Source: Gekko japonicus (lineage: Eukaryota). Taken from it: a DNA stretch of 64,000 bases. The first letter of the stretch is position 1. The number at the start of each line of letters is the position of its first letter. The notes below the pieces were generated by a model. It ran no database searches and was not told the DNA's origin. It worked only from the letters and a program-made list of their open reading frames with translations. The DNA lies in the NCBI RefSeq assembly GCF_001447785.1, contig NW_015163107.1, positions 711,326 to 775,325 of the forward strand, read 5' to 3'. The position numbers and the translations under genes were made by a program. Positions 1-61,145 of the stretch are shown in pieces.

Positions 1-77
1 AAAGATCATTTTGATATTCTTACTGAAATGACAGGTAATTTTAAAAATGCCCAACTCAGTACATGCAGATTACTCAC

Positions 78-329
78 CTCACTGTTGTGGCCCCTTAAAT
101 TAAAGTTGATTCTCTGGGGGGTGTTCCTGTCTCTTCTACAGTGGCTGGAGGTGAAGGTAACCCCTACAACTCCCCTGCCATTGCCTGTTGCCAGCCAGCC
201 TTCCTCATAATATCGCCTCCGGCACACAGGTTTCTCCTTTTCACTTTTAGGAACCCTGCCTTTCCAAGAGAGGCAGAGGATGTTGGAATCGCTGCAGAGA
301 ACAGGCCCATGCTCCACTGCTGCATACAT
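78..329 (-). CDS. TULP4: Tubby-related protein 4, first coding exon (codons 1-84); gene continues beyond the window start
   Basis: Translation MYAAVEHGPVLCSDSNILCLSWKGRVPKSEKEKPVCRRRYYEEGWLATGNGRGVVGVTFTSSHCRRDRNTPQRINFNLRGHNSE is the known TULP4 N-terminus; phase-0 donor GAG|GTGAGT at 78/77; ATG context AAAGCATGT (A at -3). Confidence 0.97.
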
Positions 330-7314: not shown

Positions 7315-8068
7315 TCACGGCATTAGCGGTGGCACCCTAACCGTAGCCTGGTGGAAGAGCTTCGTTTTACAGGCCCTGCGGAACTGTAAAAGATCCCACA
7401 TAGCCCTGATGTCCTCCAGGAGCTCATTCCACCTATACGGGGCCACCACAGAGATGGCCCTGGCCCTCGTCACAGCTAGCCTGGCTTCTTTAGGACCTGG
7501 AAGGGCCAAACGGTGTTGGGACCCCGATCTTAGTGCTCTCTGGGGAATATGTAAGGAAAGGCGGTCCCTTAGGTAAGTAGGTCCCTGACCATATAGGGCT
7601 TTAAAGGCAAGAACCAGCACCTTGAACCGAATCCGTTATGCTATAGGCAGCCAGTGCAGTGGTTTTAGGGCAGGCTGGATGTGCTCCCGCATAGGGAGAC
7701 ACAACAACAGCCTTGCTGCTGCATTCTGCACCAGCTGCAGCTTCTGAATTTGGGACAAGGGCAGCCCCATGTAGAGAGCATTGCAGTAATCCAATCTCGA
7801 GGTGACCATCAAGGAAGGGAACCAACGGCTTAATCAGCCGCAGATGGTAAAAGGCAGACTTCGCAGTGGCTGCTACCTGGGCCTCCATCATTAAGGAGGC
7901 ATCCAGGAGCACTCCCCAAATCCTAACCTCCAGCGCTGGCACCAATGGTGCCCCATCAAAGGTCGGGAGAGGGATCCCTAACCTTGGCCCACTCCGACTC
8001 AGACACAGGACCTCCATCTTTGTCGGATTCAATTTCAATCAACTCAGTCTAAGCCAACCAGCCATGGT
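7315..8068 (-). mobile_element. L2 LINE 3' fragment (RT C-terminal region, disrupted)
   Basis: LKLNPTKMEVL...GVLLDASL...AFYHLRLI and VLAFKALYGQGPTYLRDRL peptides typical of L2 ORF2. Confidence 0.9.
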
Positions 8069-11390: not shown

Positions 11391-13311
11391 GTAATTTAGA
11401 ATTAGTCACAAAAATTCTATCATATTAGCAACATTCAGCTCCAGCACCACATTTTTTCCCATGGAAATCTGAGCAATGGCCTTTCCTGCAATTATTGAGC
11501 AACCTCTTTCCCTCAGGATCATTCCATAATCTGCAAATAGCTTCAAAAGCCTGAGGCAATTCTGTGTGGTTCCTAATTATCTAATATCTGCCCACCACTG
11601 CTTAATGCTGCTCTTAGAAACAGGCATTCAAATATCTTCTTTGAGAGCTCCAATACAAAACAATCTTTTGTCTGGACCAGAAAATGTAAGGTTTGTAAAA
11701 GAGAGGGGGTGGGGGGAGCATAAAGTATCAGCTTTTCAAAACCTGAGACAAGTAGATAATGCATATAGTGTAAGTGCCATGATCGGATTTAAATGCATTT
11801 CCACTGAAAATGGAACCCTCATTTATTGTAAAATATTACCCAGAGCATAACAAGGTTCCACTAGACACCCCCCAAAAAAACCCTGCCTGTTAGACCTTTG
11901 CAGAATTGTCTGTAATTGTAGCTACAAATTGCTTATCTGTCACATTTAAAGATGGGTGAACCCCTCTGAGCTAAGTTGGAAAAGCAAACTATTTGCCAAA
12001 AGAGGGAGACATATACCACCCCGCAGGTCACTGGAGCCCAATTTCAAGGTCAGAAAGTCTCTCCCCACCACCCCAGCACAGATGATGTGGATACAGGACA
12101 ACGGTGGCAACAGTTGGCCAGTCAAGCAGGAAACTGGCCAGGCATGAAGATGATAGGCAGGTAAAGGGAATCTCACCTCACTTCCCGCCCCCAGCATCTT
12201 AGTGCATCCTGGGAAATGCAGTGCTCAGGGTACTGACAAAATATTATCCTAGGCATCTGTGAACACAGGAGGGGGCTTTTCTCCCCACTTTTTGGCTTGC
12301 TAACCCAGCAGCTCTACCCACAGAATATGCAAGGGGGAGGGAGAAGAGGAGGAAGGCAGAGAGAGAAGTTTGAGCCAGAGAAGAATTTGGAGCGGCAATG
12401 CTCACCTTTGAAGATAACCACTGTGAGAAGCTGAAGGACATATTTTTAAGCACAAAATTTAGTTTGGCGCCATCTCTAGTTTGGTACCCTTTGTACGAAA
12501 GGGTTTTTGCTTTTTTTATCCTCCCAATTCTTTTGTGAGATTGTTTAGGCTCAGGAAGACACTTAACACAAAATAACCATCATGGCTCAGCTGAACAGAT
12601 GTCTGAACTGGAGTTTCCTCAAATTCAAACCTAACATTCACCAGACCAGCTTTCTTATGTCCACCACATATTACTACGTGTGGACATAAGTGTCTTGCTG
12701 CACACTGTGCTCACTTCAGGGGTGAATTTATAAAAGATGAATTAGTCATTCACATAAAAAAAATTTTTTAGTAGGAATGGAAACTAACACAAGGTAGCCA
12801 ACCAGAATATTCCGAAGAATCTCTAGTTGGAAGAAGTTGACTGTCCATACCACTTCCTATGGACTGTCTGTTTTGTATGACTGATCTTGATTCCTTGAGG
12901 ATACCACCTCACCTCGCTCCAACTCAGTAAATTTTTTAAGCAAGTGCATCAAAATCAAGCTGCCCGGTACCTTCTTTCTTCAGAAACCAGGAAAGGAGAA
13001 AGGCTTCTTTACTTCCCTCCCCCCTTCCCTAACAGTCTGTTTCTGACATTTGTATGGCAGTTTACCACCTTCCTCTTTCAAAAAAGTTCTTCTTAAAAGA
13101 TGGAGATGGTGGGGCATTTCCAGAGAAGGTCAAAGTCCATCTCTCCTTTCCTTCACTTGTGTGACTACTTGTGAGCAGACACTGCAGTGAGACATCTCAT
13201 GTGCTGCTTTTTGTGCCTGCTGCTATACATGTAGAAAGACCAGGACAGGAATTTACCAAAGCAGCTGCAATATGGAAAATCAAGACAAAAGGAAGGTGGG
13301 CATATTAAGAA

Positions 13312-13815
13312 GTATGCGGATGACACCCAGCTCTATCTGCTGTTGGAAGGCCAGCCCAACTCCAAACTGGAAGACCTTAGCCGGGCGTTACAAGCCGTGG
13401 CTGGTTGGCTTAGGCTGAGCCAGCTGAAATTGAATCCAACAAAAATGGAGGTCCTGTGCCTGAGCCGCAGCGGTCCGAGGGTAGGGATCCTGCTTCCAAC
13501 CTTCGATGGGACACCATTGGTGCCAGCATCGGAGGTTAGGAGTCTGGGAGTGCTCCTGGATGCCTCTCTAACAATGGAGGCCCAGGTAGCAGCCACTGCC
13601 AAGTCGGCCTTTTACCATCTTCGGCAGATTAGGCAGTTGGTTCCCTTCCTCGAATGCGGCGAACTGGCAACAGGGAGCATATCCAGCCTGTGCTACAGGC
13701 ATTGCACTGGCTGCCTATATTCACTTCAAGGTCCTGGTTCTTACCTTTAAAGCCCTTTATGGCCAGGAACCTGCATACCTGAAGGACCGCCTTTCCCCAT
13801 ATGTACCCCAGAGAG
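13312..13815 (+). mobile_element. L2 LINE fragment with internal deletion
   Basis: YADDTQLY then LKLNPTKMEVL...AFYHLRQIRQL; closely similar to 7315-8068 and 37320-37715. Confidence 0.9.
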
Positions 13816-16649: not shown

Positions 16650-17235
16650 GAGCATAATGCTCTCCCAGGGACATACCTGAGGAGACGGTCCCGAAGATAC
16701 ACTGGTCCCAAACCGCTCAAGGCCTTAAAGGTCAATACCAACACCTTGAATCTGACTTGGTACTCCACTGGAAGCCAGTGTAGCTGGTGCAGCACAGGTT
16801 GTATATGTGCTGTCCGTGGCGTTCCCGTCAGGACTCACGCCACTGCATTGTGGATCAGCTGGGGTTTCTGGGTCAGTCTCAAGGGATGGCCAGCGTAGAG
16901 TGAGTTACAGTAGTCTAATCTGGAGGTGACTGTCAGATGGATTACTGTGGCTAGGTCAGGGTGCGACAGGAAAGGGGCTAATTGCCATGCTTGGCATAGG
17001 TGGAAAAACGCCAGACTGACAATATTCGTGATCTGGGCCTCCATAGTTAAGGAGGCATCCAGGACCATGCCCAAACCCTTGACAGACTGCACTGGTATTA
17101 GTGGTGCCCCATCAAGAGTGAGAAGTCTATGCCCCAGCCCTGATGCACCTCCCCCCAGCCACAGAACCTCCGTCTTCATTGGATTCAGCCTCAGCCTGCT
17201 CTGTTTTAACCATCCCACCACAGCCTCCATGCCCT
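16650..17235 (-). mobile_element. L2 LINE fragment (second subfamily)
   Basis: LRLNPMKTEVLWLG...[13 protein letters not shown]...LHQLHWLPVEYQVRFKVLVLTFKAL. Confidence 0.9.
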
Positions 17236-20200
17236 CGGCTTCATCAATTTCCTTCAGAAATGCTAACAATTGCTGCATCAATTTATCACACAGGTGAGAA
17301 GATGAGAAGCTCCTAATGGATTTCTTTTAAAAAGGGGGGAAACTATCATTGAAGATTAATATCATCCAGTCTATCAAGCTTTTTTTGAACTGTTAAATCA
17401 CAATTAACATCTGAAACAAGGTTGTTTCAAAAATCTCAAGTGTTGTAAACCACAAAGTACTGAGATCTTGCTTAACAATAATGAAGCCAACCAGTGAACA
17501 CCATGTTCTGCATTTAGCATATTTGATGTTGATTGTTTCTCAGAAACTTAGCTGGAGAAAGTTTACCGTGTAAAAAATACTACTGTATATGTTAATTTAA
17601 TATTTCTTAGGATTTTCATCATACATACTATTATGCTGAAGTTTTAGGAATTCATTTAGAACTAAGAGCCACTGTTTTGCCTTTCGTTAAACAGTCAAGA
17701 AATCTCACTTCAAGTGGAAACTGAACAAGGCCCAGCTTCTATACGTAAATGGCACAATAAACACAAGCCACAGCAGTGGTCCAGATGCCTTTATATACTG
17801 TGAAAGTGCCAATTTAACACAGAGGCATCTTTACAGCATGGTAAGCTAATCAATCATCAGAAGAAGACTCAACTAGTTATTCAGAAAAAGAGGCCAGATT
17901 ATGAATAGCTACTACAAGTTACTCCACTTTCAATATGTTTATCAACAATGACAAAAATAGCAAACCTTCAAGTTGTGACCCATATGTACACCATCCTATA
18001 GGTATCTCTAGGTATTGTTTTATGTGTATAATTTGCATGGGCATATATGAGCTCCTAGGGCATAAAATGATGAATATAAGAACACAATATATGTATAAGA
18101 AGAAAAGAAATCAAGATCATGTATGCTGGCTATTGGGAATAGAGACCATTCATAACATGTGATGTTAGCTCTGGTACTGAGTGGCTGGGAGAGGGGGTGC
18201 AGAATAGTGTTTCCAATAAATCTGGGATAAAAGCTTGACTGTACCAACGGTCAAACCATTATTAATCTGCCCCAAGTCCCCTGTGGGGAGAGGGTGTGGG
18301 GTATAAATGAAAAAAATAAATACATCCTCCTACCCAATTTATTTTTATTTTATTTTTTTCATTTATACCCCACCTTTTTTGCCAATGGGGATCCAAAGCA
18401 GCTTACCATTGTCCTCCTCTCCTCCAATCAATTGCATTACTGTCTTGCTTTGAATTTCGCTGGATGGGCTGCATACAACTTGATTGGTCACAAGCTGTAC
18501 AGTCCTGTTGGGGTAATATCTCTATCTACCAATAAGCTCTTTGCTTATGGTGCATATCTGAATGGAGAGGATTCATGTGGGGGCACTTCCAGCCAAACAA
18601 AAGAGGAATGTTTGTTTTTTTCCTTTTTGATAACACCATGCCAGCACTAAGACTCTTCAGAACTACTTGTACGTTATCTGATTCCCATACAAAAACACTC
18701 TGTCCATAACTAAACTGATTACACATGGAACAAAACTAGAGCATCCACGGTGGAAAACTTTGTTTGCTTCCACTCTCTCATTTTCTTTCTTTTCTATTTT
18801 TTCTGCCTGTACCCTACCCCTTGTCCCCTGTATCCTCAAATTCTGATTTTTAAACGTTCCTCAGCTCCCCCACTCCCCCTTTATTCCTGATCTCAGGAGT
18901 TTTACTTCTCTTTTCCACTCACTAAAGAAATAAATAGAAAAAGGAGGGGGAAATGCTACTTCTGCGGGGGGAGTACTGTGAATGGGTGAAGCAGAAGTTA
19001 CAGAGGCCAGAAAGCATGTACTGTAGTGGGCATTGACAGATGCTCCAGGGCTACCATGTCACTTACATTGCAGTCTCTCCCTCTGTGAGGCAGCAAAGCA
19101 GCAACCTCATACTGAAATCACCAGAAAGGAGAGAAATATTATTAGTTACACCTCCATTGATTCTGCTACTGTTGCTTCAACAAGGGGATTTTTCCAAAGA
19201 AACATAGGTGCCCATTATTGGTGAGCATAGTCATATTTTTTGAAAAGAGAAATAAAGCAGCAGTGCAATTGAAAAGGCTTTTCTCCATCTTTTCAGTTTT
19301 ACTAAGCTCAGAGAAGGGGACAGAAAAAAGGCCCTAGGAAGGGGTAAATTGAGAAGAGGAGATAGGCAATGGTTGCAGCCCTAACCCAGTGAAATAACAG
19401 CTCTAGTCAGGCCATCTCTGAAAGCTTTATTCTTTAATTGTGATGGATGATCTAAAATACAAAGACAGAAACCCATCACCAATCAGCATTTGATACCAAC
19501 AAGGAAAAGCCAATAATGCAACAGTTTGGGGAGAGAGGGCACCATCTGTATTCTCGGAAATAACAGACAGCAAATGGTGTCAACAGCTGCGGGACTGGGG
19601 TGTCAGCATGCTGGGTCATGCACCTCTTTGCATGATTCCTGAATTATATGCTCATGCATCTCCCAAAAGTGAAGTCTTTCAATATAAACTATTACATCAC
19701 TGGCACGCTGCTGCGACTGTTCTTGTCCACTCCATGAAATTCTCTTACCGCTTTACTAATACTTCCAATGGAAAAAACAATTCAGCTTGTAGAAAGCAGG
19801 AGGACCAGGCTGCATTAAAAAGCTTTGCATATATCTTCATCTTGCTTACAACTGTGTTCGTACTTGCAAAGCTTTTCAAAATCACTTAATAAATTCACAT
19901 CATTCCTTTGCAATTTGCAAGGTGCTCCAAAGCTGAGGACCCACATTAATGGCACTAGCACAATAAGCAGCACTTCAAAGGTTGTTGAAGACAAGGGAGT
20001 CCCTTGGCCACACTTGTGCAATGCATTAAACCTCCAGGACCATCTCTGGAAACATTTTTTGCTCCTATATGTAGTTTCTCAGCCATTAGAAGTGCCTGCT
20101 GAAACCCCACATGCTATTTCTGCCCAGACTACTTCACAGCTGGCAGCCTATGACTGGCACCATCATGGCTAATCAGGCTCTTTGCTAAGCACTAATGTAC

Positions 20201-24840: not shown

Positions 24841-27150
24841 AGGGTTCCAGAATGCTCTGCGGAATCCGATGCCTCCTGGGGCCTCATTAGATCTGGTAGG
24901 GGCCTGGAGTTCCTGTCTCTCTGAAGCCATTGATGAGGTTGCCCCCTGACATCCTCTACGCTCTTGTTTGAGATCAGCCCCCTGGAATACTGCAGAACGT
25001 AGGGGGATGAAATGAGAGCTTAGATGACTTGAGCGAGTTTGGCAGCGTACTCATGACGAAGTTACAAGAGCATCTTATAGGATGCTGATGAAATCCTATG
25101 AGATGGTGGTGAAGGCTGTGAAGAGAGAATTCCACTCAGCCTCCATTGCATCCGCTGGCTCTCGCCCAGCACAGTTATTTAGGGTGATTCGATCCCTGAT
25201 ATCTCTTATGGAGAGACACCAAAACAGATGCAGAAATTTGACTATTAGCGCTGAGGCATTTGCGAGCTTTTTCCGGAGAAAGTCTTGTCACTCTGCCATG
25301 ACTTACCTGCCAATGTTGATACAGTATGTGAACTAGAGGCCCCTTGGCCATCTTTGGATCCTGTTCTTGATTCTTGTAGCCTGCTCTCCTCTGCTGATGT
25401 TGACAGAATTCTGGGTGCTGTCAGGCCGACCACATGCCCCCTTGACCCGTGTCCCTCATGGCTGGTTAAAGCCAGTGGTGGGAAGATATGAGGCCCTCTG
25501 ATGGATATTGTACATCTGTCCCTGGAGACAGGGGTCTATCCAAAGTGTCTTAAGGAGGCCGTGGTAGTGCTGCTCTTGAAAAAACCATCACTGGATCCTT
25601 CAGATCCAGCCAATTACTGCCCAGTTTCAAACCTATCGTTTCTGGGTAAGGTGATTGAGAGAGCAGTGGCTGAGCAACTCCAAACTTTCCTGGATGACAC
25701 ATCGGAATTGGACCCATTCCAGTCTGGTTTTCACCCTGGCCTTGGGACAGAGATGGTGTTGGTCACCCTAATGGATGATCTCCATAGACAGCTGGATCAA
25801 GGCAGGTCGGCACTGCTGCTGTTGCTTGACCTCACAGCAGTGTTCGACACAGTCGATTATGATCTTCTGGCTCACCACCTTGCCGACATAGGAATTCGTA
25901 GGGTGGCCCTTCAATGGCTTCCCTCATTTCTTCAAAGTCGGGGAAAGAGGGTAGAACTGGGAGAGGATCTGTCCTCTAGGAAATCCCTGCTATGCGGGAT
26001 TCCACGGAGGCACTCCTCTCCCCGATGTTATTTAACATCTATATGCACCTCCTGGCCCAGCTGGCACAGAGTTTTGAGCTTGGGTGTCACCAATATGCAG
26101 ATGGCACCTAGCTGTATCTGTTGTCGGATAGCCACCTGTCTGTGGCCCCGCAAAATCTAGCTGAGGGTTTGGAGGCTGTGATGGGATGGTTAAAAAAGAG
26201 CAAAATGAGACTGAATCCAGAAAAGATGGAGGTTCTTTGGCTGGGAGGGAGAGCTTCAGGACTGGAGCCCAGGCTTCCACCTCTTGACGGGGCACCATTG
26301 AGATCGGCGCCATTCATCAAGAGTCTGGATGTGACTTTGGTTACCTCCTTAACTATGGAGGCCCAAGTCATGCATATTGCCAAACTGGCATTCTTCCATC
26401 TTCGCTAGGTACAGCAATTGGATCCTTTCCTGTCGCGCCCTGACCTAGTCACAGTAATCCATGCAACGGTCACCTCCAAATTAGACTACTGTAACTCGCT
26501 CTACGCCGGCCTACCCTTGAGGCTGACCCAGAATCTCCAGCTGATCCAGAATGCAGCGGCGCAAGTCCTGATGGGAACGTCATGGATGGTACATATTCAA
26601 CCAGTGCTGTAACAGTTACACTGGCTTCCAGTGGAATACCGAGTCAAGTTTTGGTATTAACCTTCAAGGACCGTTTCCTCCACTATGTCCCCGGGAGAGC
26701 GTTGCACTCTGCAGATAACAACTTACTGGTGATCCCTAGTCCCAAAGAGGCCCAGCTGTCCCTGGCCCTGGTCTTTTCGGTCCTGGCCCCAACCTGGTGG
26801 AACTCTCTGCCTACTACAGTCAGAGCCCTGTGGGACCTCATGCAATTCCACAGGGCCTGCAAGGCAGAGATGTTTTGCCAGGCTTTTGGTTAGGGACAGT
26901 GACAGTTTTCCAACATGGCTGGCACCCATCCCCCCGCAAAAAATGCCGTTTGCTAAATTTGAATTTGTTTTAAAATTGGTTTGATGTCATTAATTTTCTG
27001 ATATTTGATGTTTTTATATTGTATCTAAGGCTTAATACCATATTGTAAATTGCCCAGAGCCCGGCGCAAGTGAGGATGGGGCGAAATAATAATAGTAGTA
27101 GTAGTAGTAGCAGCAGCAGCAGCAGTGGTGGTGGTGGTGGTGGTGGTGGT
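24841..27150 (+). mobile_element. 5'-truncated L2 LINE (~2.3 kb, RT with stops and frameshifts) with microsatellite tail
   Basis: TCPLDPCPSWL, LKEAVV..LLKKPSLD...NYCPVSNLSFLGKVIER, FQSGF, LLDLTAVFDTVD, LDYCNSLYAGLP...QNAAA; 3' UTR and trinucleotide tail. Confidence 0.93.
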
Positions 27151-44818: not shown

Positions 44819-45729
44819 ATAACTTATCAGCTTAAAAATTAATGTACATTGGCCAGATCATAAGATGTACCATATCACTGACCTAACAAGTCAATGAAAT
44901 CAGTATTTTTAGTCAACAACTAAAGCCCCTCCTCTCCTCACCCAAATGACACAACTACTCCTAGATCCCACTTAGTAATGCTGGACATGGCCTCTCCACG
45001 GTTATCTGAGAGAAGAGGACTAAACATCAAATTTCTTCGATGGTGACAGACAGGGAGGAAGCACACTGAAAGTGTTTTAGAAGAGGAAAGAGAGATGATT
45101 TGCTGCAAACTCCTCCCCCACACACACACAAACCAAGGGGCTTCATTCCAGTCACTGCTTTCTCTCCCATACATCCTCCTGGCTGAATGACAGAATGTAG
45201 GCAAAAACACACACGAGAGGGGAAAATCAGGTGATCCATCAGAACAAAGGAAGAACACACAGAAAACCACCTGGCTCCGTGCATGTCACATACACACCAT
45301 CTTCACATCCATCCACCACCCAACCACCCCGCAACCCCAATCACTTCCACCCACCCCTTATTCCACACCTCTGGGCAAGCTTGCATTTGCCGATTGCTGC
45401 CCCCCTCCTCCGTGGATCTCCCCCTCCCCACTTTCACCACAAGAAATCTCTGCTGAGCAAGAAATCCTCTTCCTTACCAAAAGCAAAACACACACACACA
45501 CAGTAGTTCAATATGCACAAATAGCCAGAGCATCTGAGATAAAGGGGTGCTGGTATTTACAGCTATCAGCAGCTACAAGGTTTCCCTGCCTATTACACAC
45601 AGATCCTGCATCCTCCCGTGGAGAAAGGAAAACACCACCCGAAGGGGTGGGGGAAGATTCAGTTTTTCACACAGCGACTTAGCTGATCGGAGGTGGCTGC
45701 AATTCAGTGGGAACAGGCCAATGGCTTAC

Positions 45730-46300
45730 CTCTCCAGGGAGCAGCAGAACAGACAGGCAGAGCCAGCAGCAGCCACTGGAACTCGTCCTGGGTGGCTTCC
45801 GCCCAGCCAGCCAGCCAGCCAGCCTGCCGTCGTGTGTCCCGACAAGCCCAGCGTCCAGCGTCTGCCTATGTCTCCGTCTCTCGGTCGTGCCGCCGCTGCT
45901 GGGCCTGACTCCCCTTTCACGTGATGCAACCACATGACCCAAAACATTACTCTCCCCCCGCCGGCTCCTGATCTGTCCCCTCCTCTTCTCTCGTCTTCTG
46001 CAGTAGGCAAAGAACCGAAATCAAAAAATAAAAAATACAGATGGGCACGCCAGAACCGTTTCAATGCCAGGGCTGACAGCCCCAGGAACAGAGGAAAGAC
46101 TAAAACGAAGACAGTGTCTCTAAGCACGTGCAGAGCGTCCCGGCTGCTCAGCGCAAGGTAATTGCTTCCGTCTAGGATCAAAGGCAGTGTCTCCAGATCA
46201 AAGAGTTCGGCTTACAGATCCTGGCGGGATGACTGTTCTTTTAAGGAAAAGAAAGGATGTTATTACTTGGTTGTCTTCTATCAGGATGTTCCTGATACCG
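45730..46300 (-). other. TULP4: Probable TULP4 non-coding first exon and CpG-enriched promoter (5' boundary uncertain)
   Basis: Consensus donor GAG|GTAAGC at 45730/45729; local CpG enrichment not explained by a MITE; E-boxes CACGTG at 45918-45923 and 46125-46130; position between TULP4 coding exon and GTF2H5. Confidence 0.65.
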
Positions 46301-48406: not shown

Positions 48407-49649
48407 AGGGTTGCCAAGCAGGCCCATAGATACAGTGGGGCCTCTCCCCCCCCACCCGATTTCCAATTTTTAATTTTATTTATTGCACTTATCACCCTGT
48501 ATTTGATGTAAGTACACTTAATACAACCCTCTCTGTCGCTTCTCACTGGTCATGGCGGCTCTCTCTCATTGCCAGCAAGCTGGCAAGAAGTCAAGCCCTG
48601 CGCCGCCCTCCAATCACATGCTGCTTTCTTGCCAGCTGCAGCTGCTCTCTCTCATCACCGGCAAGAAGTCAACCCCCACTCCACCCTCCAACCCCACACT
48701 GCTCTGTCACCTGCCAACTATTGGCAGCAGGAACGCCAGCCAAAAGCCGAGTGGGTACCAGTGGAGGGGACATGCGCATGCCCACTCTGGTTCTCCCCAG
48801 CTGCCATTCAGCCACAGCTGGAGGAGGAGAAGCAGCCTTCAGTGTCAGGAATGGGGGGAGGAACTGTCATGGCAGCAGGCAGGCAACGAAGTCCACCAGC
48901 AAGCCCCGTGCCGCCCTCCAATCCCACAACACTCTCTGTCACCTCTCACTGGTCATGGCGGCTCTCTCATTGCCAGCAAGCTGGCAATAAGTCAAGCCCT
49001 GCACTGCCCTCCAATCACATGCTGCTTTCTTGCCAGCTGCAGCTGCTCTCTCTCATCACCGGCAAGAAGTCAACCCCCACTCCACCCTCCAACCCCACAC
49101 TGCTCTGTCACCTGCCAACTATTGGCAGCAGGAACGCCAGCCAAAAGCCGAGTGGGTACCAGTGGAGGGGACATGCGCATGCCCACTCTGGTTCTCCCCA
49201 GCTGCCATTCAGCCACAGCTGGAGGAGGAGAAGCAGCCTTCAGTGTCAGGAATGGGGGGAGGAACTGTCATGGCAGCAGGCAGGCAACGAAGTCAGCCTC
49301 CTTGGTCAGGCTCACTGCTCTCCTGCCCTGGCAGCCCGCCAGTCTGCCACAGGGAAGGGGAGGAGCAGAGCTGCTCACTTGGGTGTGTGTGTACAGGGTG
49401 TGTGCAGGGGTGCCCCTGACTTATTTAAAGGCCCCCCAAATAGAAAAAAATCCTGGCTATGGGCCTGTTGCCAAGGCTAGATTAGGAAATTCCTGGATAT
49501 TCGGGAGTAGAGCCTGGGGAGGGTGGAGTTTGAGATGGGGAGGGATCTCAGCAATAGAGTCCACAGTCCAAAACAGCCATTTTTTTTCAGGACAACTAAT
49601 CTCTGTTGTCCAGAGATCAGTTGTAATTCCAGGAAGTTGGCAACCCTAC
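48407..49649. mobile_element. TAGGGTTGCCA-type hAT MITE split by a nested element
   Basis: TAGGGTTGCCAAG at 48407, body resumes at 49468 and ends TTGGCAACCCTA. Confidence 0.8.
48419..49467. mobile_element. Non-autonomous hAT element (1,049 bp) with internal ~401-bp tandem duplication
   Basis: TIR CAGGCCCATAG / CTATGGGCCTG; exact 8-bp TSD TTGCCAAG at 48411-48418 and 49468-49475. Confidence 0.92.
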
Positions 49650-51674
49650 TACTTTAGGTCCTCTCCTATCCATATGGACCATGACTTTATTGTTATATTA
49701 ACATCTTGGAAGTGCCAGATTACTGTTAAACTGTGATGGTACAAAGAGACAATTTCTCGCTCTTCATCTTTCAGAATAGATTAATCTTAGAAGTTGTTTG
49801 TGGCTAACATCTAAACCCCTTACTCATTAACACATCTGCTTAAGACACACGTTTCACTTGCCAATGCACAAGTAAGTGCTTGGGAATAAAGAGCATTTCA
49901 AAAAGTTTTTCTGAAGTCTAGAACAGGGACATTCTTATTAAGTAAAAATGTGGCATTTTAATGAATAGAATGTATAACAAACAATCAACATCTCTTACAT
50001 ACTCCAAGATCTATCAGGGATGTTCCTGTGTAGACGAGGAACAGAGGGTAAGCAAACAATTACTTGCCCAAATTTGTCAGTCAACACCTGACTAAACAAA
50101 GATTGGATTCTGGTTTTACAGGTCATTACCAGACAGTAGATATTTGATAACAGTGGTATAAACAGTGACTTTCATTTCAGCTCAATAGAATAAAACATAA
50201 CTAATAAAGGGACATTTTAATAGCCTAAGACTGTGCAAACGTTTCACTTAAACATTTACTTTCCTCATTGTCTTGAACCATTGCAACTCAAAATCTTGTG
50301 TACTCTTATCAACCAAAGGGATTAAGTGATTTTTTTAATGGTCAAGGTGGGAACCCTTCCACAAAGGAGAGTGTCTCCTAAAGGTTGCATAATCTTACAT
50401 TTAAAGGTTGTTACAAACTAAGCTTTGTATTAACTGCAATTTTTCTCATGCTTCTTTGAATGATGAATACTTGTATTCATATACTCTAGGACATGTCATG
50501 GTATTTTGAGGTGATAGTCTCAGATCCTTTGTGTATGTCACAATACCACGTAACAACATAACCTGGAATAACTTTGATTTGAGACGGTTGTTGCAAAGAC
50601 AAAATGGTTCACTCCCATATATACTATCCTAAACTATATGGAGTAAGGATAGGCTATAAACGTGAGAAAATTAACACAAATGCCTTTTTTAACTTAAACT
50701 GGTCCAGTCAATTTATGCCTTGTATGAACTGTAGTTCTTACATAAACACAGTGCTAACTACAGTCTTTCAGAGAAGGGATTGAATGCAAAATCATCACTC
50801 TCCCCTACCCATCCATGGATGATCCCAGTTTCATTTTTACCTGTCCTATCAGTTTTATCAACATCTCACTAATCCTGTCTGTCCTTTTCTCTTTTTTTGT
50901 AGCTGGATTATTTCAAAACTTGGACAGAGTAACTAGCCTAATATACAGTGGTATCGTGTTACTACTTCTGCAGACGCTGAAGTAAGCAGTCCTCTGAAAA
51001 GCATTATTTCTACTTACTGGATCACACCCAAGAGTTATTTCCCTGACCAAAAGTCTTGTCAGCATTTATATCCATGTCTACGCACAAGTCAGTCACAGGA
51101 AAGCTGAGAAACTCTGAGTGCATCAGCATGCCTGTGATATCAGATCCTCAGTAGCAGATCCTTTTTTGTTTTCATGCGAGTGATTTGTGAGTGCCCTCCT
51201 GTGAAAGCAAAGAGTACTGTCACAGACAGTGTAGAATTGGCGATCACAGTCTAATAACTTCGTCATCTAAACTGATATAATAGATCAAATAACAACTACA
51301 GAAATTGTAACATTGCACAATATATTCTGCTTGTGGTAAACTTCAAGAATATGGCTTCCTAGATCAAGGCTTGTTGATATATGGAAAACCTATATCTCAA
51401 CATACAAGCAAGAAGTTTTGCTGTGGGCTCCTATTAAAAAAGACCATTTTTGTCTTATGAAAGCATTTGCCTCGAAGCAAGTAAGCATTATATATACGGA
51501 GTTCATAGAACTCCCCCCCCCCAAAAAAAAAACAGGATACTGTATCCAGCTCAGCTGCACCTACCTTTTTGAACAGCAGGATGCGAAATAAATGTTATTC
51601 TTATTACTAGTGCCTCACTTCTCTGTGAGTCCATATGATGCCTAATTTTATACATCTCTATCCCGTTGCCTTTT

Positions 51675-56500: not shown

Positions 56501-57569
56501 GCATTCTCTGACTGATAACCCCATTCCATAAAAGACATATTCTCTTACCCACATAAAGAGGAAGGTCATGGACTGAAGAGGTTGCTTGCTTGTCTATCAC
56601 CAAGCATCATTCAACTTTAGTGGATGACATTCATTTAACCACTCCCTATTTAAAAAAATCCTCATGAGATCAGCCTAATTTACCTCACAAGGTTCTTCAG
56701 ATGCTAAAATGGAAGAAGGGAGAACAATGAAAGCTGCCTACGTTGAAGTTAGCCAGAGACTTAGGGATCTCAGGAGAGCCTTGGGAGCCAGAATGGCAGT
56801 GCTGTTTATTCCTTAGCAATCTGGAATGAGAAGGGATTGTTAGGGACAACTGGCAAAATTGCTCCTTGATGCTGTTTTTCCTCATTTTGTAGATTACTAG
56901 CTCTTTGGTATATTGTCCTTAAAAGACATTAAATGGATTGAGACACAGCTAGAGTGACATTGGCAGAAGATCCAATCTGAGTCAGGCCACATGGAGTCGC
57001 AGGAAAGGCTTTCTTCACCACCATTATTACATCACCAGAATCTTCTCAAGTAACACTTTTCAGGATGATCTGAAATCCTTCAGCCTCTAGTTGATCTTCT
57101 AGCAAAGGAAACAGTTATAGCTTTCTGTAATGTATTTCCTGGGTTCTTTGCTTTTGAAGTTGACCTAACCTGGCCTGCCTTAGATGCCAGTTCAGACACA
57201 CAGATTCTGTATCAGCCACCATCTGTCTTTTGCAGTTGCTGAATCATTTCAATTGTTCTTCTTAACCAATGTTGACCACTGGCCTGAAGTTGTGATGACC
57301 TGGAGTTGTGAAGACCACCACTTGCAAATTAATCCTTTCACCATCATGGTCAAGTCTTATCAAAAGGATATAAGAAACTTACTGGCCCAGGATAATTAAC
57401 ACATCATTGTTTGATGAAGCATTCCCTTAAACTACACAGCTACTATCTTATGGAACATTCCACTAAAGAAAGTACATAAAGCACTCACACTAGAATTCTT
57501 TTTGTTGGGATTTTAAAACTTATGTTTGGAGGGATTTCAATTAATTAGCAGGCAGTCCTTCTGTTGTAT

Positions 57570-57575
57570 TTTATT
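57570..57575 (-). terminator. Candidate GTF2H5 polyadenylation signal AATAAA (alternative ATTAAA at 57846-57851)
   Basis: TTTATT on plus strand ~310 nt downstream of the stop. Confidence 0.45.
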
Positions 57576-57886
57576 ATACCAGTTCTATATACTCTAAATA
57601 AAAATGTGAAAATGCAAATGGATACACACACATGTATGCTGTAAGATCATCTTCTCTATTATAGATAATTACAATGAAGAGTAACAGAAAACTGATTTCC
57701 CCTAGACAGAAAACATAAACTCAAAACTAGTAAACTCTGAAATCACTTGTGGTGACCGCCTTTTACTGGCTGCCATCAAAATCGCTGTTTACAAGTATGG
57801 TCAGTATCTTCCACACTGAAAACAATCAAAGTGAATTCATGAAAATTTAATTTAAATAAACAGTTCAATTATTACAGTGACCATGT

Positions 57887-58145
57887 CTACTCAAATTCCT
57901 CCAAATCAGTGACAGAAAAATACATATCTACTGACTCCAATTTGACAAAGATAATCCCAGTTCCATTGTCTATTTCTGTGTAATAGGGAAAATGGTCCAT
58001 TAACTCTCCCACTTTCTCCTGAAGGCAGTTAACCATCTCAGCTAATACAAAGACATGTGTTTCATCCAAGTCTTGTATGATAAACTTCTTCCCCAGGGCA
58101 TTGGACTCATCCAAGTACAGCAGGAACTGCTTCATTGCTGGGTCA
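57887..58145 (-). CDS. GTF2H5: General transcription factor IIH subunit 5 (p8/TTDA), last coding exon; C-terminus frameshifted as sequenced
   Basis: Acceptor TTTATTTGTATCATTGCAG|TGACCCA at 58146/58145; translation [50 protein letters not shown] matches GTF2H5; ancestral-type end FPITQK-TAG (stop 57970-57972) is out of frame, in-frame stop is 57887-57889. Confidence 0.93.
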
Positions 58146-59181
58146 CTGCAATGATACAAATAAAATTATGGTCACATCAGAGGACATATCTGTGAATTAT
58201 GGCTGTATTGCTAAAACAGGCTTTTCTCTAATTCTAATGGAATTTGATTTTATTAATGCATTAAGGTGTCAATATTCTAGTAAGCTTTAATTTACTTGTT
58301 TTACTATATACTGCTTTGCACAGCAAGGAAAGGTGATATAGAAAATACAGTAGACAAATAGGGGTGTGTATGCATGCACATTAATTATTTGTAACATACC
58401 TCCATAGTCCTGGACACTGATAAATCTTTGGAAGAAGAATTAACAATTAAAAACTCCAGGGAAGTGTAAGATTAATTGTAAGGTTAGGAAGCTTTGGAAA
58501 GAGATAAAATATTAATTTATTAAGAATCGCTGCATAGTAAAAAAGATGCTGCTATTGGATTCGGATCTAACTGTTCTATTGCAAACTATGACAGCTGCCC
58601 TCTGAAATGCATATCAGATGCTCCTCTGAAAAACAAAGAATTATTAACTATACCACAGAAAATGTTACCTTGCATTAAAAATACACACAGATAACACTTA
58701 TACTCAAACTTACAATGAAAGAGAGTGTAGCATATAGAGTTCAGCTATGCTACAGAAAATATGACAGATATTTTACATACTGTTTTTAGATTTATAACAC
58801 ACTTTTTAATCTTACATCCTTAAAAGCAGCTTACACTTTAAAATGCAATCAGAATGTCTTCTCTACCTGCTACTCCCTCTATATTATTTTCATTTGGCGA
58901 GCCTGAATGGCACTTTGTTTGGTGGTGCACACTCTAGCCCTTCTTCCCAGGACAAAAATTTTCACATCACAACTATAACTTGGTCACTAATTCCTACAAC
59001 CTGGACTTAGAATATTGTAGATTGTAAAACACCAAACAGTATGCAGAATCAGACATCCAAGTCCAAGACTTGTGCTGCCCAAAGACATCTAGTTCACATT
59101 CAGCTCCTGTCTTCTTCCATTCCTTCTGTCTCTCAACAGTGTCAAAACTTTACAGTAGTAAAACTACCATCTGGCCTATCC

Positions 59182-59425: not shown

Positions 59426-59472
59426 ACATAAAGCATACTGCACATCTGGGGTAAGAAAGCAGTTCTACTTAC

Positions 59473-59507
59473 CATTCTATAAGTATTCCTTTTAAGACAT
59501 TCACCAT
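59473..59507 (-). CDS. GTF2H5: GTF2H5 first coding segment (35 nt) in exon 2 (59473-59527)
   Basis: ATG GTG AAT GTC TTA AAA GGA ATA CTT ATA GAA TG = MVNVLKGILIE(C); donor TG|GTAAGT at 59473/59472; acceptor CTCTGTACCTTAG|G at 59528/59527; phase 2 joins exon 3 to give TG|T Cys. Confidence 0.96.
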
Positions 59508-59594
59508 CCTTGCAACACTATCAAGCCCTAAGGTACAGAGAAGGGTAAAAAAAATGAAACACTTAACTTTCATAAAATCATGATAAAGTTTTAG

Positions 59595-59995: not shown

Positions 59996-60800
59996 TGAGG
60001 AAGCTAAGGGAATATGGCTTGTCTAAAGCAAAGTGATATCTGAATTAGGGCTTGGAGTTCATTTTCTAACTGGAGTGCTCACATAGAACTTGGAGCTTTC
60101 TGCATGCAAAGCAAATTCTGTACCGTGAGCCACAGCCCCACTTGCTAAGCCATGCTGCCTCCTAGAAATATCCTTGTAATAATAATACTGGTCTCTTATA
60201 AGGATATTGTAAATACTGGAACATGATAATACACATGAATAACTGAGTGTTGAATATACACACTGTTACAGTTATTCTTTCAGTACCATACTATAATGGC
60301 TTCCTCTCTGGAATTTGCTGCAGTTCAGTTCCTTTATTTTCCTACATAATTTTAATGTATTCCTTTGTTGTCGTTTTCAGAGATAAAGACAACTAGTGGG
60401 TGGGATGAGATGGAGTATGCTTCTCTCTGGTGAGCGTACATAGATGCATAAGCATATGTTGCACTATATGAAGGTGCCACTGGGACTCTTCGTTGCTTTG
60501 GAAGCAAGAGGCTCAATGAACGGGCATACTGCTGAAAACAGCTCAAAACAGAGTATCAGCACATGATTTTTTCTAACTAAATAAATAGTGATAAGGCTGG
60601 AGCCCAGCTCTTATCGGCCTAATTCGTTCTCATCCTTTAGATTTAGCTGCAACGTCAAATCAAGCGTTCTATACGAATGCAAAAGGCACTGCGGGCTGTG
60701 TGTAATTTGGGGAGAAGGGTAGAAGCGGGGGGAGAACACCATCAGAAGCCACGACAACTTAATCTACCCAACTGAGACCTACACCGGCCGGCCCCTTCAC

Positions 60801-60900
60801 CTGAACAGCAACGTCGCCTTGACGACGAAAAGGCTTCGCCACCTTTCTCCAGTCACCGGAAGCAGTAGGCTCAGACGAAACACCGAGACCAAGACAGCCC
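60801..60900 (-). other. GTF2H5: Probable GTF2H5 non-coding exon 1 (5' end approximate)
   Basis: Donor CAG|GTGAAG at 60801/60800 on the edge of the CpG island; GTF2H5 has a non-coding first exon in other vertebrates. Confidence 0.6.
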
Positions 60901-60989
60901 CTACAACAGAGCACGCGCCACTTAACTCGCTATCGGATTGGCTGAAGCTCGGGAGGTGCGCGTGCGTATTTGAGAATGGGGCGGTAGTT

Positions 60990-61062
60990 GGCGGTGTCGC
61001 CGTCACTCCAGAGCGTAGGCGGTGTCCTCGTTGAAAGCTGGGACGGGAACAGAGATGGACAG
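60990..61062 (+). other. SERAC1: Probable SERAC1 non-coding exon 1 (5' end approximate)
   Basis: Donor CAG|GTAGGG at 61062/61063; SERAC1 is head-to-head with GTF2H5 in other vertebrates; identity from synteny only. Confidence 0.55.
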
Positions 61063-61145
61063 GTAGGGGGGATGAGGAGGTGTCCCATCCTTGTGGAGGG
61101 GTGGAGGGAGGGAATCCGAAATAAGTTTGTGGGAAAGAAATTACT

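Follow-up and report, generated by a model that had tools for sequence, protein, structure and literature searches.

The window analysed here, a stretch of 64,000 nt of gecko DNA, contains the gene for p8 (GTF2H5, also named TTDA), and after codon 62 of this gene the assembly is five bases short, which leaves the conserved last nine residues of p8 out of frame with 35 others in their place. We suggest that this shortfall is probably, though far from certainly, a consensus error of a fragmented assembly, and we consider it highly probable that the species makes an ordinary p8; the weights given to all readings are a matter of judgement and were not computed. If the consensus is at fault, the p8 of this animal would be the usual 71-aa protein with the end QNSFPITQK, as in other geckos, and the sequencing reads would be expected to disagree with the assembly, probably because the consensus had been mis-joined or gap-filled locally where a short run of T occurs. 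The p8 protein would then pair with the C-terminal domain of p52, stabilise TFIIH and support XPB in nucleotide excision repair as usual, and the tail would be 3' UTR read in a frame that is absent in vivo.

GTF2H5 consists of two coding exons on the minus strand, with the ATG at 59507, 35 coding nt and a GT donor at 59472, and these are joined by a GT-AG intron whose AG acceptor lies at 58147-58146 (Table 1). The last exon starts at 58145 and the frame ends at the TAG at 57889-57887, giving 12 + 85 = 97 amino acids as assembled. The product of the last exon matches Pfam Tfb5 (PF06331) at 62.4 bits against a cut-off of 23.5, over profile positions 13-64 of 67, and human p8 chains in the PDB match it with an E value of 5e-25. 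By inspection, residues 1-12 from the first coding exon are those of residues 1-12 of a gecko p8 record, and residues 1-62 are identical with the p8 record of Paroedura picta and Heteronotia binoei. The p8 of Gekko kuhli agrees with the window across the last exon and that of Sphaerodactylus townsendi differs there at one residue, and both end in QNSFPITQK. The original prediction had named the gene as the p8 subunit of TFIIH and described a folded core that is intact, followed by a 35-residue tail with the stop at 57887-57889, and all of this agrees with the matches and the translation. When the assembly was searched with the protein, the family and the DNA of the 3' end, each search returned one match; a hidden intact copy, haplotig or retrocopy was found by none of the three, the counts being lower bounds. 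The locus is thus the orthologous p8 gene of the genome and its only one, and not a retrocopy. The gene thus shares residues 1-62, the Pfam match, the single copy and the downstream neighbour TULP4 with the known form of this TFIIH core subunit (Tfb5 in yeast), and differs from it in its C-terminal end. Nonsense-mediated decay is expected to be escaped, provided that this exon is the last one. The 20 nt of exon ahead of the ATG (59508-59527, minus strand) are open in frame, and equivalent N-terminal extensions are present in several lizard p8 records, including that of S. townsendi. A CpG-rich stretch at 60750-61100 likely marks the promoter that GTF2H5 shares with the gene upstream of it.

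Table 1. Positions of the features discussed, numbered within the window except for p52, which is numbered on contig C11810
Feature	Position	Strand	Basis or remark
TULP4 first coding exon	75..329	minus	lies downstream of GTF2H5, same strand; used as synteny marker and as frame control
GTF2H5 first coding exon	59473..59527	minus	ATG at 59507, 11 codons + 2 nt, AG before and GT after; sequence
GTF2H5 last exon, intact portion up to D62	57995..58145	minus	sequence, Pfam Tfb5 and PDB p8 matches
Lesion, including the T4 run 57992-57989	57989..57994	minus	sequence against relatives
Usual end FPITQK-stop, unaltered but in another frame	57970..57990	minus	frame-1 translation; gecko records end in the same residues
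Frameshifted 35-codon tail and new TAG stop	57887..57994	minus	sequence; no homologue
Candidate polyadenylation hexamers	57851, 57575 (57570..57851), third at 56810	minus	sequence motif
p52/GTF2H4 last two exons, C-terminal domain intact	C11810:656422-657635	minus	open frame, stop just past the domain

After the codons for M61 and D62 (58000-57995), the window has 4 nt (57994-57991) where relatives carry the three codons for Q-N-S, a net loss of 5 nt as had been described from the letters alone. In order to model the lesion, all 24 Q-N-S codon sets were placed between the flanks of the window. A single 5-nt deletion yields the observed bases in 0 of the 24 sets, so the one clean deletion originally proposed does not hold. 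A 5-nt loss with one substitution explains the lesion in 8 of the 24, two separate deletions in 12, and a 6-nt loss with one extra T in 8. On this modelling the lesion appears compound, needing two edits from any Q-N-S codon set unless the third residue of the species had already changed, and such a pattern fits either a consensus fault or one deletion-insertion event. The argument that a loss outside homopolymers is a less typical sequencing error is also weakened, since the lesion is compound and lies on the T4 run 57992-57989; this coincidence is itself weak evidence because runs of at least 4 nt cover about 9% of the window bases. The site is AT-rich and without a tandem repeat. No second copy of the junction 8-10-mers was found within about 2 kb of the site, and a templated insertion was rejected for want of such a local template; a micro-intron was likewise rejected, 4 nt being presumably too short. 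The six old codons and the old stop are unchanged, indicating that the event, if real, is very recent.

The end of p8 was compared with that of its relatives at the protein level. The set comprised 145 relatives, namely the best 120 of 318 matches and 25 cluster members, of which 144 were informative and one was a fragment that stops short. All 144 informative relatives keep the normal register and have F or Y at the fourth residue past the position of D62, and 129 of them stop exactly nine residues after that position. The remaining 15 have a longer end, which in every case begins in the normal register and in none carries the tail of the window; 10 of these 15 come from assemblies and show W where the stop is expected, the gene caller having likely read TGA as Trp. 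The ordinary ending is in frame in four named gecko species (P. picta, H. binoei, G. kuhli and S. townsendi). A record from an elephant seal labelled 'GTF2H5-like', which heads a 71-member cluster, diverges from the normal end past the conserved F and is possibly a retrocopy.

Of the 35 tail codons, nine cover the old ending and the other 26 follow its stop. When the bases of this stretch are shuffled, an open run as long as the tail arises with a frequency of 0.10; local shuffling gives 0.19 and random starts in the window give 0.26-0.28, and the length of the tail is therefore at chance level (P 0.10-0.28). Asp and Glu make up 6 of the 26 free residues, with P about 0.009 under three nulls for a feature picked post hoc, and the joint P for acidity and absence of Cys and Trp is 0.001-0.004, likewise post hoc; the entire tail of 35 residues has 8 Asp/Glu and no Cys or Trp. 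C-termini rich in Asp/Glu and poor in Cys/Trp are linked to stability, the trend in aberrant tails being the opposite (PMC12976096). The acidity is the sole departure of the tail from chance and, chosen after the fact, is a hint only. No protein bearing the tail was present in the best 120 of the 318 p8 matches, where one would have ranked top, or in the nearest cluster, all 7 of whose 7 members were examined. The tail gave 0 matches against 1.84 billion representatives, in which a tail-bearing p8 could be hidden inside a 50% cluster. The search of longer proteins with the tail alone was also empty and is a weak negative, as it failed to return longer lizard p8 records in which the first 11 residues of the query are present. 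A motif spanning the site gave 0 matches in metagenome contigs, a result that was expected and is uninformative.

The assembly is in 191,500 pieces, and local signs of poor assembly, such as gaps, repeats or other broken exons, are absent at GTF2H5. There is no run of N in the window, and of the five runs in the 264 kb around GTF2H5 the nearest is 44.5 kb off. The neighbouring TULP4 is unbroken: all 1566 residues of a bird TULP4 are covered by 14 in-frame matches and all 1486 of a monitor-lizard TULP4 by 12 matches, without stops or frame breaks in either case. With the nearest gap at this distance and TULP4 unbroken, the region is not generally noisy, which counts against an error; a single fault within some 5 kb of coding sequence would nevertheless be compatible with a clean neighbourhood. 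In the mouse, TULP4 likewise lies downstream of GTF2H5 (PMC3630102). A conger eel gene model joins a Tfb5 domain with the first coding exon of TULP4; these are likely two genes fused by the annotation, in line with the same order of genes. On the other side of GTF2H5, exon-like ORFs on the plus strand resemble SERAC1, which would then stand head to head with it, although searches did not confirm the name. A CpG-rich stretch at 45500-46200 is likely the promoter or first exon of TULP4. Long plus-strand ORFs at 48430-49736 contain one set of peptides in two copies about 470 nt apart, a recent tandem duplication of a unit that is non-coding or a repeat; the ORF fragments at 7601-8038, 13235-13750, 16835-17326 and 25492-26160 resemble pieces of LINE reverse transcriptase.

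Region 57500-58300 is partly present in 20 of the 24 sequencing runs listed, 16 of them under one species label, with 0.43-0.89 of 79 sampled words found. These shares cannot separate the alleles, because the lesion would cost only about 3-4 of the 79 words. The highest share is 0.89, and two runs of whole-genome size reach only 0.59; either several differences between the assembly and other animals in this region or patchy contigs of the runs may explain the low shares.

Based on these observations, we favour a consensus error for several reasons. First, the genome has only this one copy of the gene, and mouse embryos that lack it die (PMC3630102). Second, the register is normal in all 144 informative relatives, and the four gecko species have the usual end. 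Third, the old ending is unchanged, two edits are needed to explain the lesion, the length of the tail is that of chance, and no tail-bearing protein was found. Finally, the assembly is fragmented and p52 has no compensating change. False frameshifts are a documented class of error in older assemblies, defined by at least 80% of reads disagreeing, and the cases described in draft vertebrate assemblies by Kim et al. (PMC9516821) resemble the present one in being lone indels below 10 nt whose length is not divisible by three, located in conserved single-copy genes of fragmented assemblies. By contrast, those errors cluster in GC-rich 5' regions, while the site in the window is AT-rich and lies at a 3' end; frameshift errors are also far fewer in Illumina-based assemblies (PMC9516821). 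We count this rarity against an error in case the present assembly is Illumina-based, together with the lack of a nearby N gap, the clean TULP4, the AT-rich site without a tandem repeat and the acidic tail.

A tentative alternative to the consensus error, distinctly less probable, is that the lesion is a real private or rare allele of the sequenced animal, likely in the heterozygous state. One deletion-insertion would have put one base in place of about six, and this allele would have been retained in the haploid consensus. The clean local assembly is in keeping with such an event, the unchanged old ending fits its very recent date, and a single deletion-insertion could give the compound pattern. 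The resulting protein of 62 + 35 residues would likely still bind p52 and be neutral or mildly hypomorphic, with its effect masked by the normal allele. The reported genetics of p8 are consistent with this: Ttda-null mice are embryonic lethal, heterozygous null mice have no obvious phenotype, and the human R56X protein, which lacks 15 residues, is partly functional, still gets to damage sites and is compatible with viability (PMC3630102). Since R56X is viable, lethality cannot prove an assembly error and leaves room for a real allele. The human TTD-A alleles R56X and E55X (PMC3630102, PMC8617094) are likewise changes in the last exon that remove the C-terminus of p8 and are partly functional and compatible with life, but they cut 15-16 residues and cause disease, whereas the form in the window replaces nine residues and adds a tail. 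The severity implied by the original prediction was accordingly overstated, given that these truncations are viable and that C-terminal tags are tolerated. In the available parts of the TTD-A literature on R56X and E55X, we found no published human p8 allele of the window's form. Among the matches listed, the literature on GTF2H5 frameshifts and trichothiodystrophy variants had no title on a reptile, and supplementary tables of patient variants could hold similar late frameshifts; a search for literature on GTF2H5 in geckos found none. Two points speak against a private allele. The protein collection, which extends to assemblies of sequencing runs, yielded no protein with the tail, though a rare allele need not be represented in it, and about 2 kb of surrounding sequence contains no template for the junction.

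It is unlikely that the tail is a fixed extension of the species, in which a 97-aa p8 would have its conserved last nine residues replaced by an acidic tail that is tolerated in the way a tag is, its content of Asp/Glu and lack of Cys and Trp keeping it stable, although the composition does match the pattern of stable C-termini in PMC12976096. Added sequence at this end can be tolerated: TTDA that carries GFP at its C-terminus complements null cells in full (PMC3630102, PMC1457016), a C-terminal V5 tag on GTF2H5 rescues TTD-A cells (PMC12618060), and UV survival is normal in C. elegans with a C-terminal GTF-2H5::AID::GFP knock-in (PMC8617094). However, these tags are added to the native end, which the lesion in the window removes. 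The interface with p52 is formed by strands 1-3 of p8, and the contact of p8 with XPB is about 516 square angstroms (PMC7708078); from the family fold, strands 1-3 would fall in the retained N-terminal part, which favours a functional extended protein. The p8 chain record of PDB 8EBT appears, from its match, to keep residues to about 69, and the residues lost here may therefore be ordered. The p52 protein is unchanged, and compensation by a truncation of p52 like that of XP-J (PMC12618060) was rejected because the C-terminal domain of p52 is intact in the assembly. In addition, the extension is absent from the four named gecko species and all 144 informative relatives, the old frame has not decayed, and at least 16 runs under the same species label contain the region, yet no tail-bearing protein was found. 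The tolerated lineage-specific extension offered in the original prediction is thus disfavoured.

It is still less probable, and in our view very improbable, that a real in-frame loss of two codons was combined with a one-base over-call of the T run by the assembler, because, although one T fewer at 57992-57989 puts FPITQK in frame again to give a 69-aa p8 with its usual end and a clean 6-nt deletion is then obtained from 8 of the 24 Q-N-S sets, two independent rare events would be required at one site, none of the 144 relatives has lost residues there, and the position on a T run carries little weight as evidence, given the share of window bases that lie in runs of at least 4 nt.

Most of these outcomes are ordinary, and specialists would have reason for interest only if the form were fixed in the species. 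If the preferred reading of a consensus error is right, the GTF2H5 model of this assembly is not to be taken as a gene loss or a novelty, and if the lesion is a private allele, it would be one further segregating variant, probably a mild one. If it were fixed, the conserved last nine residues of p8 would be dispensable in a whole vertebrate, which would mark a boundary between the truncations that cause disease (R56X, E55X) and changes that are tolerated. A fixed extension would also provide a natural test of the role of the p8 tail in XPB regulation and UV repair, and would be a case of coding sequence arising from a 3' UTR in an essential gene, caught in a snapshot.
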